From Escherichia coli (GTDB lineage Bacteria; Pseudomonadota; Gammaproteobacteria; Enterobacterales; Enterobacteriaceae): a DNA stretch of 64,000 bases. Below the pieces are notes generated by a model, which ran no database searches, was not told where the DNA came from, and saw nothing but the letters and a program-made list of their open reading frames with translations. Location: NCBI RefSeq assembly GCF_041886205.1, contig NZ_CP169029.1, one strand, 5' to 3'. A program made the translations under genes and the position numbers. Position 1 is the stretch's first letter, and every line of letters starts with the position of its first letter. Shown in pieces: positions 7,455-14,455 of this stretch.

Positions 7455-8275
7455 AGATGAATAAATCCGTCGTAGACATGTACCGCCGGGCCAGTCATAT
7501 ATAACGGGTGACCCGGACCTTTCCAGGCGATATCAAGACGACCGCCGGGGAGTTCCACGCGTACTTCTTCGGCCAGCAAACCTTGCTGAATCCCTACCGC
7601 CACCGCCGCACATGCGCCGCTGCCGCAGGCCTGGGTTTCTCCTGCCCCACGCTCATAGACGCGTAAACGAATATGCTCGCGCTTAACCACTTGCATAAAA
7701 CCGATATTGGCGCGCTCCGGAAAACGTTCGTGGCTTTCCAGAACAGGACCAAGCGTTTCTACCGCCGCAGTATCGACATCATCGACCTGAATCACGCAAT
7801 GCGGATTTCCCATCGACACCACGCCGCATAAGATTGTCTGCTCGGCAGCGCGCATAATATAGGTCTTTTCCGCTTTGTTAGCGCGAAACGGCACGGCAGA
7901 AGGTTCGAAGTTGGGTTCGCCCATATTTACGCGGACCAGATCGTCATCGGTGACGGTCAGAACCATCCGCCCGTTGGCGGTGCTGACGCGGATATCGCGC
8001 TTATTGGTCAGCCCTTTCAGACGCACGAAACGGGCAAAGCAGCGCGCGCCGTTGCCGCACTGCGCCACTTCACTGCCATCAGCATTGAAAATGCGATAGT
8101 GAAAATCCAGTTCAGGATCATACGGCGGCTCAACCACCAGCAACTGATCAAACCCTACCCCCAGGTGCCGATCCGCCAGGCGACGAATCAGTTCCGGTGA
8201 AAAAAAGACATTCTGCGTTACCGCGTCGACGACCATAAAATCGTTGCCAAGGCCATGCATTTTCGAGAACTGCAT
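7451..8275 (-). CDS. dapF: Diaminopimelate epimerase DapF
   Basis: Translation [17 protein letters not shown] with catalytic Cys motifs (CGNGARC, CGSGACA); 274 aa. Confidence 0.95.
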
Positions 8276-8311
8276 CATTTACTCCAATCACGCGGGTACA
8301 GAAACTGACTT

Positions 8312-8515
8312 TTAGTAATTCACCTGGGATGGACCATCGCCAGTGGCACGGTCGTTTTTATCCGGCACCGTGGATTGCGTTTGTGTCTCTACCGGTTTGG
8401 TCGGCGGCGGTGCATTTTTATCTGCAGGCGGGAAATAGAGCGGACCTTTCAGACCGCAGCCCGTCAGGCTGAAGAGAGTAAGTAATACAGTGAGTGCCTT
8501 AAACACGTTTTTCAT
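8312..8515 (-). CDS. yifL: Small lipoprotein YifL
   Basis: 67 aa with lipobox LTGC after signal peptide; Pro-rich tail. Confidence 0.85.
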   Translation of the reverse strand: MKNVFKALTVLLTLFSLTGCGLKGPLYFPPADKNAPPPTKPVETQTQSTVPDKNDRATGDGPSQVNY

Positions 8516-8703
8516 TATGGATTGCCTGTAAAGTTCATCGCTTTCTGCTTTCTATCATCGCAGGAGAAGGCGTAAAAGCAAGCGTTTAGCGACTCTTTAT
8601 GAAGTCTGAAAAGTGAGGAAATGCTGCGAGTATAACGCTTACTCGTGGGGATTTATGTTTTGCTGGTAGTTTCGTGATCGGCACCTCGCGCCAGGATGGC
8701 TTT

Positions 8704-10182
8704 ATGCACTATCGCAATGTGGTTTGTTTGTTGTCTTGTTCGTTGTTTTTATCGTCGGCATGGGGATGTCGGCTTGATGAGCCGGAACATAATATTTACC
8801 AGAAACAGGGAAAAGGCGTGGTGTACCTGCGCCCTTATAAAGAAACAAATCTTTCTCTACCTGACGTGAATTACAAGAGTTTGCGTCGTTTACCTAATTT
8901 ATTAATAGACGCAACAACACAAGATGAATGGAATAAAGAACCACCTCTGACTGATCTAACAACTGACAACCTCTATGAGGGCGCACAAGCCTGGTATCCC
9001 CATTACTCCTGGCATAGCGATGGTCGCTATATCCTCTACGCGGGTGAAGTAGTGCAAAATCCTCACGACGCACCACCCGTCGATATCGCCTCATTCAAGG
9101 CATGGGGAGATTTTGCCGCAGATAAACACAGTCTCTATTTTGAAGGCAAGCGCACCGATAACAATGGCGGGGGAAATCGCTTAGATATCAAAACACTGCA
9201 TCAGGTGGAATTCCGGCCTCCCTGGGATCCTGACTTACTGGGGCTGATATTACGTGACGCTAATTTCTTGTATATCAATGGGCATCGCCTCGCAGATCCC
9301 GATAGTTTCCGTGTGCTGGCACAAAAGTCATGGGATCAACGAGGAAAGTTTTCTACCGCGTTTAATCCCTGTGTGGCTATGCCATTTGGCCCATGGGATA
9401 CCCTGGCTCGTACACGGACCAAAATCCTGATCAACGGCGAACAGCTTGATGCCGACCCGGACACTTTTTCCGTCGTGCGCTGGATGCCCGGCTCACTCTT
9501 GACCTGGCGTGATAAAAACGGGCTGCAGCGTAAAGTCCTCGACAAGGAAAATCTGGCGTGGGATGAGGATTTAACAAAGCACTGTCTGGATTTTTCTCTG
9601 CTGGAAAAGAAAGTGTTCTGGCGTCGGGGGCCTGACTGTAAACAGGAAGAATTACCGGGACTCGATCCGGAACAGTTTCACCCCATCAGTGATGCTGTCG
9701 CACAGTATCAGGACTCGCTTTATACCATCATCGAAACAGAGTCTGGTGACCGCAAGCTGGAGATCGTGAAACTTGATGATCCTAATCTTATTATCAACAA
9801 ACGTTTCAACGCCGGGAAACGCCACGGCTATTTACTTACGCGTGCCGAAGGGTGGCCAAACCATTCCGGTTTACACGTGTTTGAATCTGATGGACCGCTG
9901 ATCTTACTGGATAACCGCTCTCCGGATGAACGCGAAGCCCATCTTAATGACCATCCCTTTTTGCGCAGATGGTATGCCCGCGATAACCGCTACGTTTACA
10001 GCTTTGATGGCGCGCAGCTCTGGCGATACCGCACCGCGGATCCGAAACAAGTTCGCTTAATCTGGAAGGAACAACATTCGGGATATGGCTATGGCGTAAA
10101 TTACAAAACGGGATATCTGGACGGAAAAATTACCGATGACGGCGAATTTATTCCTGCCCCGCGCAATGAGGCGACAAAATGA
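8704..10182 (+). CDS. Exported DKNYY-like repeat protein (paralog A), function unknown; start could be 8674 (GTG) or 8704 (ATG)
   Basis: ORF track 502 aa; N-terminal signal/lipoprotein-like segment (…LFLSSAWGC); repeated blocks such as VDIASFKAWGDFAADKHSLYF, RLADPDSF, DADPDTFSVV, ARDNRYVYSFDG; collinear similarity to the downstream ORF. Confidence 0.7.
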   Translation: MHYRNVVCLLSCSLFLSSAWGCRLDEPEHNIYQKQGKGVVYLRPYKETNLSLPDVNYKSLRRLPNLLIDATTQDEWNKEPPLTDLTTDNLYEGAQAWYPHYSWHSDGRYILYAGEVVQNPHDAPPVDIASFKAWGDFAADKHSLYFEGKRTDNNGGGNRLDIKTLHQVEFRPPWDPDLLGLILRDANFLYINGHRLADPDSFRVLAQKSWDQRGKFSTAFNPCVAMPFGPWDTLARTRTKILINGEQLDADPDTFSVVRWMPGSLLTWRDKNGLQRKVLDKENLAWDEDLTKHCLDFSLLEKKVFWRRGPDCKQEELPGLDPEQFHPISDAVAQYQDSLYTIIETESGDRKLEIVKLDDPNLIINKRFNAGKRHGYLLTRAEGWPNHSGLHVFESDGPLILLDNRSPDEREAHLNDHPFLRRWYARDNRYVYSFDGAQLWRYRTADPKQVRLIWKEQHSGYGYGVNYKTGYLDGKITDDGEFIPAPRNEATK

Positions 10183-11501
10183 ATGGTCAAATAATCACTG
10201 TTGCACTCATCCTGTTGGGGCACATATTTCTGACGCCTGCTGTACAGGCCATAGGGTTCGACTATTACAATGATCACGGTGTTATGTCTTACGGTAAAGG
10301 TTATGGGGAGGATGAGAAAATCATTGCCCAATTTCCGAAGATGAACAGAGCCGATTTGCGCCTTGTGACAAATATATCCGGGGAGCGGGAGTTGGTGGAA
10401 GGCTATATACCCACCGATGAAATAAGCATAAAAAATGAGGAATACCACTGGGTGACAGACGGCCGCGTTATTCTCTGGCGTGGCAAAATCGTTAGCAATC
10501 CACCGGGAACACCCACTGTCGATATTGCCAGCTTTCAGGCTATGGGCCGCTTCGCGGTCGATAAATATAGCCTCTATTTTGACGGACAGCGCACCGAAAG
10601 TAATAGCGGCGCGTCACGTGTTGATCTGGCGACACTAAAAGCTATCGAAGGTAACTCTACCACGCTGGTGGATAGTAAAAATCTCTATTTGTCCGGTCGA
10701 CGTCAGGGGAGCAGCAGTAATGTTACTGTATTAGAAAAAAGATGGTGGGGTATTAATCCACGTCTTATGAGTGTAAACAGAAATTTGTATTCCAATGATC
10801 TGCTTATCCGCAGTGGGCAGAATATTTATTTAAATGGCGTTCACCTTACGGCGAATGCAGACTCATTTGAGATAATTCGCTGGAGACCTCATTCACTGCT
10901 GGTTTTTCGCGACAATAAGGGTCTGCATCGTTATCCCTTTGGTCAATTATCAGGCAAGGCAATACCCGTAGATGATGACGTCTCTTTTGAAGTAGGGGAA
11001 AGTCGCGTTCGCTGGCGTAAACAGCTCACGTCCGACCGTCAGTGGAGCAAGTGGATAGACCTACCAGGTATTGAACCTGAACAATTCCATCTGATTACTG
11101 GCAATATTGCGCAGTATAAAGATCGTCTGTATGTAACAAAATTATCGACTTTTGGTGAAGACCAGCTTGAAATAATTCTGCTGGATTCGCCAGACCTGGT
11201 CATTGATAACTCATTTAATGGCGGCAAACAACATGTTTACTTTATCCGCCAATTACGGTCAAAGAGCGTGCAAATTATTCCAACTAACGGCCCGCTAATT
11301 AAAAACGATCGCTTCGCTTATGACGATCGCAATGTTTATACATGGACCGATACAGAGGTAAGGATTACGCCCTCCCCCTGCCCGGCGAAAACACACGTCA
11401 GAGAAGAGAATGTGCGTGAACTTCACAACAGAGACATTATTATTCCGTTGACGGATGAATCATGCCAGAACGCAGCAGACGAGCAAACTTTGAAGCCCTG
11501 A
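10179..11501 (+). CDS. Exported DKNYY-like repeat protein (paralog B), function unknown
   Basis: ORF track 440 aa; signal peptide MNGQIITVALILLGHIFLTPAVQA; start ATG overlaps upstream stop (ATGA); blocks VDIASFQAMGRFAVDKYSLYF, TANADSFEIIRW, DDRNVYTWTD paralogous to the upstream ORF; AT-rich. Confidence 0.7.
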   Translation: MNGQIITVALILLGHIFLTPAVQAIGFDYYNDHGVMSYGKGYGEDEKIIAQFPKMNRADLRLVTNISGERELVEGYIPTDEISIKNEEYHWVTDGRVILWRGKIVSNPPGTPTVDIASFQAMGRFAVDKYSLYFDGQRTESNSGASRVDLATLKAIEGNSTTLVDSKNLYLSGRRQGSSSNVTVLEKRWWGINPRLMSVNRNLYSNDLLIRSGQNIYLNGVHLTANADSFEIIRWRPHSLLVFRDNKGLHRYPFGQLSGKAIPVDDDVSFEVGESRVRWRKQLTSDRQWSKWIDLPGIEPEQFHLITGNIAQYKDRLYVTKLSTFGEDQLEIILLDSPDLVIDNSFNGGKQHVYFIRQLRSKSVQIIPTNGPLIKNDRFAYDDRNVYTWTDTEVRITPSPCPAKTHVREENVRELHNRDIIIPLTDESCQNAADEQTLKP

Positions 11502-11548
11502 CCCCATGCCGCTATACTGCCGCCATCACTTAAAAACAGGATACAACA

Positions 11549-11869
11549 ATGAACGACAGTGAATTTCATCGCCTGGCTGATCAACTCTGGCTGACCATTG
11601 AAGAACGCCTGGACGACTGGGATGGCGACAGCGATATCGACTGCGAAATCAACGGCGGTGTACTGACCATTACCTTTGAAAACGGCAGCAAAATCATTAT
11701 CAACCGCCAGGAACCGCTCCACCAGGTATGGCTGGCAACCAAACAGGGCGGCTACCATTTTGACCTGAAAGGCGATGAGTGGATTTGCGATCGCAGCGGC
11801 GAAACCTTCTGGGATTTGCTGGAACAGGCGGCGACGCAGCAGGCGGGTGAAACAGTCAGTTTCCGCTAA
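11549..11869 (+). CDS. cyaY: Frataxin homolog CyaY (iron-sulfur cluster assembly)
   Basis: 106 aa, [19 protein letters not shown]...; convergent with cyaA. Confidence 0.95.
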
Positions 11870-11908
11870 GATTGCATGCCGGATAAGCCTCGCTTTCCGG
11901 CACGCTCA

Positions 11909-14455
11909 TCACGAAAAATACTGCTGTAATAGCGGCGTGTCATGATCCTGATTGGCAGGCGGCATGTTACCGATAGATTTTGTGCGGAACGGAATCACCT
12001 GTTCACGACCATCAACCTTCACAATCTGATAGAACTGCGGCAGGTTGAAGTTGATGAAGCTTGAGCCGTAGGTGAAGCGGTCGTGCGATGACGAGTAGAA
12101 GCGACTGACGTCACGCACCAGCTCCTCTTTGCTGCCTTCGCAGTGGTGATACACCTCAACCCGGTTGCTTTCGTCGAGAATGTAGATATTAAAGCCATTC
12201 TCATCTTGCGTTTCTTCGAAAAAGAACTGGATGATCCCTTCGCTGGCAAAGCCGTCCACCACCGCCGGTAATTTGACGTGATTGGTTTCAACCTGCACTG
12301 ACAGGCCGTGCAGTTTGTTATGCGAAATAGCGCCATAAAACTCGATGGCGTTTTCCAGTTTCTGTACCGATACATTCAGGCGTTCGAAGAACAACCCCCA
12401 GGTTTGACCAGAAACGCGCAGCGCCTTGAAGCGTCCGGTTTCCTGGCGGGTGCTGGAAAGACGCAGTTCAATACACTCAGAAACCAGTTGCTGCACGCGA
12501 GTACGGATTAAGCCGCGCAGATGCTGGCTATAACAGAAGACTTCCACGCTATCTGGCGGTGCGGCGTCCTGATGCATTTTGCCGAGAATAGTTTTCAGGG
12601 CTTCGATCATCGATTGCTCGCCGTTGAAGTGCAGCGTACGCACTTCGTTCCACGAGTTGCGGTACAGCAGGTCAACGCTACCTACCAGGCAATTTTGATT
12701 CTCGCCAAAGCTGAAGACATCCAGCTTACGGAAATCAAAATGCACCACCTGATTGCGGAACGCAGCTGTCGGGTCATATTCCAGGTTAACGATAATCGCC
12801 AGATGGCGGATCTCACACGGGCTGTAGAGCGCCTTCGGTGTCGGTGCAGGTAAGCGCAGCGGGAAATGGTGCGACACGTCGGCGACCATCTCCTGCAACT
12901 TAGGCAAATCGACAATGCCGTTACCTTTAATATACAAGCGGGTGCGCGAGGTCAGCAGGCCGTTAAACCATGCCCACGCCACCAGTTTATTCAGGTAACG
13001 GTTATATTCCAGCGGCTGATGGCTGATGATCGACTCAATATTTGGCGCGCGGTTATACAGATACCAACCTGAACGGTTAGCCCGGCCCGGCGGCACATAA
13101 ATAAAGGTCAGATTCGGTTCCGAGAGATCGGGTGAAATCTGCGGGTTTACCAGAGTTACTTTACCTGGCAATGCTTCAAACGCGGCATACAGCTTACGCG
13201 TCAGCACACCGATATCCTGCGGGCTGGCGGAAACGCTAAGGTTATTGCGACGCGCAAAGCGGATCAGATTGCGGTAGCTCTGCATCATCGCGTCGAGCAA
13301 CTCGTTGTGCGCCTCACGCACCTGATCAATCTTCCAGTTAGCGCGGTTATCGAGCATTGCCAGACGAGCATCGTCCCAACCCCACTCGCTCACTAACTGG
13401 CTCAACACTGCGCGACGCCAGCCTACGCAGGCGCGTTCACGGCTGAGCTTTTCGCACACTTTTAAATAGAAGCAGCGACGTACTAAATCCAGACGGGTGA
13501 AATCTTCAATCGCCGTCAGGTATTCAGTAACACGCTCCAGCATCATGCAGTATGGATCGAGACCAAACGATACAATCTCGCCGTCGTGCAAACGCTGTTT
13601 GATATCTTTCGCCAGCAGACGTGGGTTCGGGTATTCCCAGGAATAGGCTTCCAGCAGCAGTGTTTTCAGCACCGCTTTGTATGGGGAATCGATACTCTTG
13701 TAGAGCTGCCAAAGGCTGGCACCAAAGTACTCTTCAGCAGAAAGCGAGCTTAAGCCACCGAGATCCAGCCATTCATTTGGCGTCAGCACGCCCTGCGCGT
13801 AAAGCGTCATCACATAGTCATCGTAATGCTCTTCTTCGTCGCACGGCACCATATTCCACAGAATACGCTTACCGGCGAGACGCACGGCGGTACGATAAAA
13901 TTCGTCAAGCAGCAGTATATGCTGGGTGGAGCCACAATCTTCGCCCCCCAGGCTGCCGCTTTCATTATGACGGAAGCGATTTTCATCAATCAGGAAGAAG
14001 CTGACTTCCACACCCAGCGAGGCGGCCCAGCTTTCCAGCAGGCTGCATTTACGTTGTAGTAACTGGCGCTCTTCGCTATCGAGCCAGGATTGATGACAGA
14101 CCCAGATATCCAGGTCAGAGGAACAACTTTGCCCTACGGACGAGGTGCTGCCCATGGTGTATACACCAGTAATTGGAAGCTCACCTTTCGGCGGATCCTG
14201 TACTGACATTCCACGATACAGTTCAAGCTCGTTCAGGTAGTGGCGTTGAGTTTCATCAGGCGTGTAAAGGCAAATGCCTTTGGGAACGTTACCATCAAGG
14301 TAACCCGGCATTAGCGGATGGTGATAGTGCAACAATGTCGGCAGTAGACTGTAGACCTGTTGGAATGCAGGCCCCATAGCAGCAAGCGCGCGATCCACAC
14401 GCAATTGATTTATGGCATCCAGTCTCTGTTTCAGAGTCTCAATATAGAGGTACAA
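11909..14455 (-). CDS. cyaA: Adenylate cyclase CyaA (class I), TTG start
   Basis: 848 aa; N-terminus (M)[11 protein letters not shown] encoded from TTG codon at 14453-14455. Confidence 0.95.

Follow-up and report, generated by a model that had tools for sequence, protein, structure and literature searches.

Anatomy of the lptM-cyaY locus

The window, by which we mean the whole 64,000-nucleotide stretch of Escherichia coli DNA analysed here, carries two plus-strand open reading frames (8674-10182 and 10179-11501 in the ORF list) within the 3,033 bp that separate lptM (yifL) from cyaY, the locus being bounded by dapF/lptM on one side and by cyaY/cyaA on the other (Table 1). A preceding sequence-only reading had described two same-strand frames of 502 and 440 aa in about 3 kb at this place; the arrangement and the second length stand, but the figure of 502 aa belongs to the maximal frame opening at GTG 8674, and ATG 8704, giving 492 aa, is the likelier start of ORF1. 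This ATG is the PGAP start in strain LHM10-1 (100% identical), and the N-terminus that it produces (MHYRN...) is kept in orthologues. G+C content is 0.489 in ORF1 and 0.456 in ORF2, below the 0.52-0.55 of the flanks. Scans of ORFs, repeats and tRNAs found no IS, integrase, tRNA or flanking direct repeat at the borders, in agreement with the earlier reading, and the closest tRNAs lie more than 11 kb from the gene pair. Rfam returned no match within 8200-12000, the leader RNA (8516-8703) folds no better than its shuffles (z = 0.27), and promoter and terminator scans gave nothing beyond chance level.

Table 1. Features of the lptM-cyaY interval and its flanks, in window coordinates
Feature	Coordinates	Strand	Description
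lptM (yifL)	8312-8515	-	Core flank, divergent from ORF1; 100% identical to annotated LptM WP_000799889.1
Intergenic region and ORF1 leader	8516-8703	+	Common to divergent lptM/ORF1; nearly unaltered in K-12-type scars (alignments)
ORF1	8704-10182	+	492 aa; predicted outer-membrane lipoprotein, DKNYY-like all-beta repeat protein
Allelic cassette	8824-9408	+	ORF1 codons 41-235, N-terminal repeat domain; very old divergent alleles within E. coli
Segment lost in scar-type E. coli, K-12 and O157 included	8861-11427	+	2,567 bp
ORF1/ORF2 stop/start overlap (ATGA)	10179-10182	+	GCGACAAAATGAATGG; GAGG ~9 nt upstream
ORF2	10179-11501	+	440 aa; predicted soluble periplasmic paralogue of ORF1
cyaY	11549-11869	+	Core flank

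The signal peptide of ORF1 ends ...SSAWG/C22, from which we predict an outer-membrane lipoprotein; its lipobox (A-W-G-C) is non-canonical at -3 and -2, and every lipoprotein-type paralogue keeps the lipobox Cys, followed at +2 by R, S or K. ORF2 has a signal peptide ending ...AVQA/I (a signal peptidase I site) and a Cys401/Cys429 pair at its C-terminus, and is predicted to be a soluble periplasmic protein. The two proteins are paralogues (36% identity over 325 aa, E = 2e-61). The ATGA overlap reported previously is real and is also present in the annotation of other E. coli alleles and of Citrobacter; together with the upstream GAGG it is consistent with translational coupling of the two genes. 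An AF2 model of ORF2 is all beta (pLDDT 81, pTM 0.70), and a model of ORF1 joined to ORF2 by a linker, built on a paired alignment, reached pTM 0.55 and pLDDT 73, values that speak neither for nor against a heterodimer. Tandem family members occupy three chromosomal homes (lptM-cyaY, cycA-ytfE and hda-arsC), and at all three they always consist of a lipobox-Cys paralogue and a signal-peptidase-I paralogue. In Salmonella, E. albertii and some E. coli, in-frame fusions of ORF1 to the C-terminal domain of ORF2 are widespread.

ORF1 and ORF2 are divergent DKNYY-type all-beta repeat proteins without a catalytic signature. They share with DKNYY (PF13644) the repeat motif D-x-x-x-L/V-Y-[FY]-x-G, which appears as DKHSLYFEG, DANFLYING and DNRYVY in ORF1 and as DKYSLYFDG, DSKNLYLSG and DDRNVY in ORF2, and the block DK..LY.DG.R is invariant over 18 paralogues. 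Matches of the window proteins to the Pfam profile lie below Pfam significance (i-E = 0.019 and 0.082 for ORF2, 5.2 for ORF1); of 18 family members, the same profile matches 8 with E <= 1e-3 and 12 with E <= 0.1, the lowest E-value being 5.4e-6. Foldseek against AFDB50 matched the same family only, the best AFDB structural neighbours are DKNYY proteins, and the fold is common to the ORF1/ORF2 family and DKNYY; remote DKNYY matches are low-scoring, multi-repeat proteins. Compared with DKNYY at large, the window proteins form a small, Enterobacterales-only clade in which the pairing of lipoprotein and soluble paralogue is fixed and which has a second, non-DKNYY C-terminal domain (LPGxDPEQF...AQYQD).

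No enzymatic family was found for either protein in Pfam, NCBIfam, PADLOC, PHROGs or PDB sequences, which bears out the earlier remark that enzymatic motifs are not recognisable; at E <= 1, PADLOC matched neither protein to any family, and NCBIfam and PHROGs gave no matches. PDB sequence matches were at chance level only and were rejected, among them an OXA beta-lactamase (E = 0.055) and an aldehyde dehydrogenase (E = 0.93). A literature search for 'DKNYY' led to one unrelated paper and no functional literature for the family, and no paper was found that connects yifL, cyaY and a pseudogene. STM3941 (a putative inner membrane protein, indole-induced) and STM14_4741-4745 (starvation Tn-seq, near yifL) were considered and dropped, none being mappable to a DKNYY-like gene. 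The pair had been put forward as a candidate uncharacterised system, and this holds insofar as no assigned function was found, yet the family is already catalogued as DKNYY and PGAP calls some alleles 'DKNYY family protein'.

Deletion in K-12 and history of the gene pair

In K-12, for which the earlier reading had given only a short spacer, the interval is 462 bp long and aligns to window positions 8516-8860 and 11428-11548. It is a deletion scar in which the 5' end of ORF1 is joined to the 3' end of ORF2, approximately 157 nt of ORF1 coding sequence being fused to the final 74 nt of ORF2. The junction (8860/11428, within 1-2 bp) recurs in all four scars examined (K-12, O157, NR3736, CH10508) and is in frame; NR3736 and CH10508 still encode a mini-lipoprotein of 76-77 aa, and the mini-ORF of K-12 and O157 has been cut down to 17 aa. 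One ancient in-frame deletion of 2.57 kb removed the pair from K-12, O157 and roughly two thirds of E. coli, after which the scar decayed. Across the scar, on the antisense strand, K-12 has a gene model, yzcX (b3808), which is probably spurious.

At least 80% of positions 8900-11400 is present in 1394 of 5426 complete E. coli genomes and some part in 1865, so that carriers make up about a quarter to a third; those sampled include B2/ExPEC/APEC and non-O157 STEC genomes, among which an enrichment is visible, and Shigella holds truncated fragments of the module. The same site holds orthologues in no fewer than six further enterobacterial genera: between lptM and cyaY, Citrobacter carries 2 genes and Klebsiella spallanzanii 4, and orthologues likewise lie there in Salmonella, E. 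albertii, Pseudocitrobacter and Phytobacter. The Salmonella orthologue at this site is a fused protein of 669 aa found in thousands of assemblies, Superficieibacter retains a remnant there, and reading frames are intact from Escherichia to Leminorella. The two genes form a vertically inherited, Enterobacterales-specific envelope module that is ancestral at the lptM-cyaY site, and the locus continues to change by duplication, gene fusion and deletion. We have high confidence in this account of the module's anatomy and evolutionary history.

Across E. coli alleles and in comparison with Citrobacter, dN/dS of the two genes is 0.09-0.40 (0.09-0.19 for ORF1), against 0-0.06 in the flanks; by these values both genes are real and functional, under purifying selection (dN/dS roughly 0.1-0.4). 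Divergence within ORF1 is concentrated in the cassette: window and B2 alleles share 71% amino acid identity over codons 41-235 (dS 1.78) and 96% over the rest of the gene (dS 0.15), and the window cassette resembles that of Citrobacter (79%) more than it does the E. coli B2 allele. The N-terminal repeat domain persists as very old allele classes. Positive selection as the main driver of this divergence was rejected, given a dN/dS of approximately 0.1 even in the variable cassette.

These observations bear on two simpler accounts of the locus. The sequence-only reading had taken the genes for a two-gene insertion between yifL and cyaY and hence for strain-variable accessory DNA. Strain variability is borne out by the counts above and by absence from K-12, and a horizontal arrival in some strains would agree both with this presence/absence polymorphism and with G+C content under that of the flanks; the insertion itself, however, we regard as scarcely credible. 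Because K-12 keeps the joined ends of ORF1 and ORF2, it is K-12 that carries a deletion and not the window an insertion, and K-12-type spacers that hold both gene ends at one junction, same-site orthologues in other genera and the lack of mobility genes, att-like repeats or PHROG hits all speak against acquisition. As for a genomic island, the borders have no mobility genes, scar strains offer no clean empty site, and the module is not absent from related genera. Acquisition machinery is not visible because the pair is ancestral here and was lost from K-12, a case that warns against taking a gap in K-12 for an insertion in other strains. Loss from most E. coli, the Shigella fragments and the further decay of scars after deletion might instead suggest a functionless relic whose genes are decaying with no current role, but the dN/dS values hold over divergences reaching dS ~2, frames remain intact as far as Leminorella, and the fused Salmonella form is kept in thousands of assemblies, so that we consider a relic very improbable.

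Possible functions in the envelope

We propose that ORF1 and ORF2 may jointly form a non-enzymatic binding module in the periplasm, with ORF1 tethered to the outer membrane and ORF2 free, and that this module would capture or neutralise a variable molecule entering the envelope, for example a periplasm-acting toxin delivered by a T6SS or similar weapon. The lipobox of ORF1 and the signal peptidase I site of ORF2 place both proteins, by prediction, in the periplasm, where such a toxin would act. Immunity-like protection that pays off in some ecologies only would explain the frequent loss of the pair, its old alleles and the DUF3304 gene that neighbours it in most carriers. The last of these, an orphan gene directly upstream of ORF1, occurs in 1075 of 5426 complete E. 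coli genomes (~20%), and DUF3304 is the Tli1 immunity domain (PMC13133936). A Citrobacter homologue, 64% identical, lies in a VgrG / DUF4123 / DUF3304 / Tle1-like cluster, and an E. coli copy (76% nucleotide identity) lies beside DUF4123. Lipoprotein and soluble paralogue paired at three homes, natural fusions and cassette alleles at dS 1.78 also count in favour of the explanation as a whole.

This proposal must be tempered by several observations. The link to DUF3304 is circumstantial because the gene is absent from the window and from non-Escherichia loci. At the loci examined, the genes next to family members include no toxin, effector, VgrG or adaptor, and the three conserved homes are all housekeeping neighbourhoods; the one departure from this, a weak one, is a lone copy in Limnobaculum found a few kb away from an Rhs array and a prophage. 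Neither protein matches any known immunity or defence family, and with an overall dN/dS far below 1 the genes show no sign of rapid positive selection. The mature proteins (420-470 residues each) exceed most characterised immunity proteins in size. An immunity-like, toxin-binding function is the leading inference and nevertheless a doubtful one; the explanation as a whole, weighted towards this functional claim, we hold only tentatively, at somewhat less than even confidence. More speculative than the toxin-binding role itself is the suggestion that the pair represents a new Enterobacterales class of envelope protection, a two-part periplasmic trap whose exchangeable N-terminal cassette would set specificity for toxins or foreign envelope-active proteins. 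If true, such a trap was missed for decades because K-12 holds only a deletion scar.

Two other functions were weighed against toxin binding. By analogy with LolA/LolB or with the N-terminal domain in LptA/LptD, the pair could serve as an envelope relay or in biogenesis, soluble ORF2 passing a hydrophobic or glycan cargo to outer-membrane-anchored ORF1, with a cargo that would be strain-specific, such as a surface polysaccharide or lipid; we think this unlikely. Alternatively, the N-terminal repeats of ORF1 might be a surface antigen, acting as an adhesin or as a phage or immune target, with alleles kept by frequency-dependent selection and ORF2 as chaperone or partner. Repeat beta-proteins are often binding scaffolds, the old allelic dimorphism is limited to this repeat domain of ORF1, and the module is patchy, with its enrichment in the sampled groups named above, all of which would fit an antigen; the low dN/dS within the variable cassette does not, and the remote DKNYY matches bring no functional clue, leaving an antigen role a slightly slimmer prospect than a relay. 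Binding of an incoming toxin remains our preferred reading. Whichever function applies, the module comprises two sizeable, predicted exported proteins found in a sizeable share of E. coli, widespread in Salmonella and present in several other enterobacterial genera, and the pairing, natural fusions, old allele classes and DUF3304 neighbour lead to testable hypotheses on envelope defence. We found no experimental work on either protein in the literature, one likely reason being that in K-12 and O157, both laboratory strains, only the scar is left.

Comparison with known systems

Tli1/DUF3304 proteins, which act against T6SS Tle1 phospholipases, resemble the predicted products of the pair in being periplasm-facing, membrane-tethered, non-enzymatic beta proteins, and resemble it also in position through the orphan gene upstream of ORF1. 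They are unrelated to ORF1 and ORF2 in sequence and fold, the two proteins of the pair are 3-4 times as large, and at the loci examined no effector, VgrG or adaptor gene adjoins the pair. LolA and LolB are a soluble carrier and an outer-membrane lipoprotein acceptor, paralogues of one another that are essential and universal in these bacteria; a predicted soluble periplasmic ORF2 and a predicted outer-membrane lipoprotein ORF1, paralogous and paired at three homes, recall this arrangement, whereas the pair is dispensable and polymorphic, and a fold search found no match to LolA/LolB. Beta-propeller envelope proteins such as TolB, with BamB as a lipoprotein example, also count among the closest known systems. 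The lysozyme inhibitors MliC and PliC are smaller (~100-130 aa) and of a different fold, and sequence, profile and fold searches found no similarity between them and ORF1/ORF2. They nonetheless present one fold as a lipoprotein and as a free periplasmic version, shielding the envelope from an incoming enzyme, and ORF1 and ORF2 are likewise predicted to be lipoprotein and free periplasmic versions of one fold.

The lptM-cyaY interval and its protein pair

The 3,033 bp between lptM (yifL) and cyaY hold two plus-strand ORFs (see table), within a segment (8300-11900) that is 100% identical to E. coli strain LHM10-1. As the sequence-only reading had it, the two ORFs lie on the same strand and overlap by ATGA at 10179-10182, and no IS, integrase or bordering repeat was found at the two-ORF region; nor is any tRNA present there, and GAGG lies ~9 nt upstream of the overlap. 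Of the lengths it gave, 440 aa for ORF2 holds; 502 aa for ORF1 is the maximal frame from GTG, and the PGAP start at ATG 8704, with which an MHYRN N-terminus conserved in orthologues agrees, yields 492 aa. G+C content, which it proposed to check, is 0.489 in ORF1 and 0.456 in ORF2, below the 0.52-0.55 of the flanks.

Features of the lptM-cyaY site, of related loci and of the scar (coordinates for L-numbered comparison loci are within those loci)
Feature	Sequence	Coordinates	Strand	Remark
lptM/yifL	window	8312-8515	minus	core flank
ORF1, maximal frame	window	8674-10182	plus	from GTG, 502 aa
ORF2	window	10179-11501	plus	ORF call
cyaY	window	11549-11869	plus	core flank
yzcX counterpart	window	11423-11758	minus	111-aa antisense ORF over cyaY
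yzcX (b3808)	L040	851-1336		MG1655 gene model, 161 aa
Mini-lipoprotein ORF	L037; L038	605-835; 605-838		NR3736, CH10508
DUF3304 segment	L003	1717-2960		E. coli P15-385
Natural fusions	L009; L029; L031; L032	10001-11995; 6001-8010; 2275-4332; 6613-8640
Second and third homes	L011; L033; L028	4847-7389; 2494-5175; 8001-10863
Other lptM-cyaY cargo	L007; L009; L029	13956-20772; 12264-12797; 7989-8378
Single family member	L013	8001-9314		Limnobaculum

The two products, which share 36% identity across 325 residues (E = 2e-61), are paralogues and form an exported pair of non-enzymatic beta-repeat proteins that is ancestral, dispensable and polymorphic. The ORF1 signal peptide ends SSAWG|C, with a Cys conserved in every lipoprotein-type member, and other lipoprotein subtypes of the family carry canonical LAC, IAC or TAC lipoboxes. 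Under the Lol +2 sorting rule, the R, S or K at position +2 predicts that lipoprotein-type members are sorted to the outer membrane. In ORF2, signal peptidase I is predicted to cleave at AVQA|I, and a pair of C-terminal Cys residues is conserved. In recurrent natural in-frame fusions (604-685 aa; Salmonella, E. albertii, Pseudocitrobacter, Phytobacter, some E. coli), ORF1 is present in full and ORF2 contributes its C-terminal domain, a hint that the two work as one unit.

Judged by dN/dS, both ORFs are functional but under less constraint than their neighbours: ORF1 gives 0.09-0.19 and ORF2 0.13-0.40, whereas dapF, lptM, cyaY and cyaA give 0-0.06. Divergence within E. coli is mosaic along ORF1. 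Between the window allele and a B2-type allele, the N-terminal repeat domain (codons 41-235, window 8824-9408), a recombining allelic cassette, is 71% identical with dS 1.78, whereas identity elsewhere in ORF1 is 96%, with dS 0.15; the window's version of this domain is nearer to Citrobacter (79%) than to the B2 allele. Such a pattern points to allele classes of great age, either maintained or passed around by recombination. Fast positive selection there is disfavoured by a dN/dS of ~0.1 inside the domain.

Deletion and haplotypes within E. coli

The K-12 spacer is short (462 bp), as the sequence-only reading had it, but not for want of an acquisition: it aligns as window 8516-8860 joined to 11428-11548, so that the leader and 52 opening codons of ORF1 run straight into the final 24 codons of ORF2, and PGAP labels it a 'DKNYY family protein' pseudogene, frameshifted and partial. 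On this alignment the K-12 state is a deletion and the window state is not an insertion. Because K-12, O157, NR3736 and CH10508 have the junction in common, within 1-2 bp, a single ancient deletion of 2,567 bp probably underlies the scar. The deletion left ORF1 and ORF2 in frame with each other; an intact 76-77 aa mini-lipoprotein ORF combining the ORF1 lipoprotein signal with the ORF2 C-terminus survives in NR3736 and CH10508, and the K-12 and O157 scars carry an extra 6-bp deletion and a stop that leave 17 codons. The MG1655 gene yzcX, antisense to cyaY and listed in two papers as encoding a membrane protein and as pairing with cyaY in a 'divergent excludon', spans the scar and looks like an annotation artefact produced by it.

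Among 5426 complete E. coli genomes, 5425 contain the flanks and 1394 at least 80% of 8900-11400, with some of that interval detected in 1583 by megablast and 1865 by blastn; internal sequence is absent from about two thirds, and every spacer lacking it that was examined is the scar. The DNA is strain-variable, as proposed, but not acquired. At least five states occur: the scar; ORF1 and ORF2 (the window, B2 strains such as APEC O18); DUF3304 with ORF1 and ORF2; DUF3304 with a fused 685-aa gene; and DUF3304 with a divergent pair and a fused gene.

The DUF3304 segment, absent from the window, lies between lptM and ORF1; 1075 of these 5426 genomes have it at a coverage of at least 80%. It is bracketed by a ~245-nt direct repeat comprising the ORF1 leader and the 5' end of the signal peptide, and after it comes a remnant ('...PGVNPAHFNVISHTMAQ*') of a further DKNYY-like paralogue. 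The window form would result from recombination between the repeats, although the change could also have run the other way. DUF3304 is the domain found in Tli1 proteins, which confer immunity to the Tle1 phospholipases of T6SS (PMC13133936). A Citrobacter homologue (64% identical) lies within a VgrG-DUF4123-DUF3304-Tle1-like cluster, and an E. coli copy (76% nucleotide identity) adjoins DUF4123. No effector adjoins the lptM-cyaY copy, which is therefore an orphan immunity gene. One contig of 4 kb (JAIJJM010000270.1, locus L015) bears the label 'MAG: Collinsella sp.', but its DUF3304, ORF1 and ORF2 are 94-99% identical to E. coli, and it is almost certainly E. coli DNA placed in the wrong bin.

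Homologues in other genera

Comparison across enterobacteria overturned the insertion reading, since homologues occupy the same site in many genera, and the gene pair is evidently ancestral there. Citrobacter sp. FP75 has two genes (75% identical for ORF1, 62% for ORF2), Klebsiella spallanzanii four tandem paralogues, arranged as two lipoprotein-soluble pairs, plus other cargo, and Salmonella enterica a single fused lipoprotein of 669 aa, on record in thousands of assemblies; the forms in E. albertii, Pseudocitrobacter vendiensis and Phytobacter are fused as well, while Escherichia sp. MOD1 has homologues and Superficieibacter a remnant. Across these genera flanking proteins are 93-100% identical, ORF1 and ORF2 45-75%. 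More generally, variable content concentrates at this hotspot: K. spallanzanii carries a GntR regulator, an amidohydrolase and two MFS transporters, one enterobacterium a PAP2 phosphatase and Salmonella a DUF3021 membrane protein.

The family has a second home at cycA-ytfE (Salmonella, E. albertii, E. whittamii, some E. coli; probably also a Pseudocitrobacter copy with unmatched flanks) and a third at hda-arsC in Leminorella. Tandem pairs at all three homes consist of one lipoprotein-type and one soluble-type paralogue, in reversed order at cycA-ytfE. When one genome from each of 100,044 species was scanned, relatives turned up only in Enterobacteriaceae; an exhaustive profile search across 1.84 billion representatives returned only 131 proteins at E <= 1e-3, the named closer homologues being from Enterobacteriaceae or Budviciaceae and the weakest multi-repeat matches including a Gracilibacteria protein. 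In Limnobaculum a single member has prophage genes on one side and the tail of an Rhs toxin/orphan cassette array on the other, the only toxin-proximal context found for the family.

Possible function and relation to known systems

We propose that ORF1 and ORF2 may act jointly in the periplasm as a binding module, with one copy anchored in the outer membrane and the other free, which would capture or neutralise a variable molecule entering the envelope and so give immunity-like protection. This function is the one we prefer, though we think it less likely than not. The arguments for it are the signals for export, an absence of catalytic features, the frequency of loss, the old allele classes confined to a single domain and an orphan neighbour of Tli1 type; against it stand the lack of an adjacent toxin gene at any conserved locus, dN/dS values well under 1 and a link to DUF3304 that is circumstantial. 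A LolA/LolB-style relay or envelope-biogenesis factor seems rather unlikely, and a surface antigen or adhesin somewhat more so. That the pair is a relic we consider very improbable, and horizontal insertion, opposed by the single fused junction in K-12 and by the homologues at lptM-cyaY elsewhere, scarcely credible.

RefSeq names these genes 'hypothetical protein' or 'DKNYY family protein', and no functional literature was found on DKNYY or the lptM-cyaY locus, which bears out the expectation of an uncharacterised system. This is a sizeable, conserved and unstudied envelope module of which K-12 happens to lack an intact copy. ORF1 and ORF2 fall outside all characterised systems; within the DKNYY family they are a divergent Enterobacterales variant, distinguished by its architecture of a lipoprotein with a soluble paralogue.
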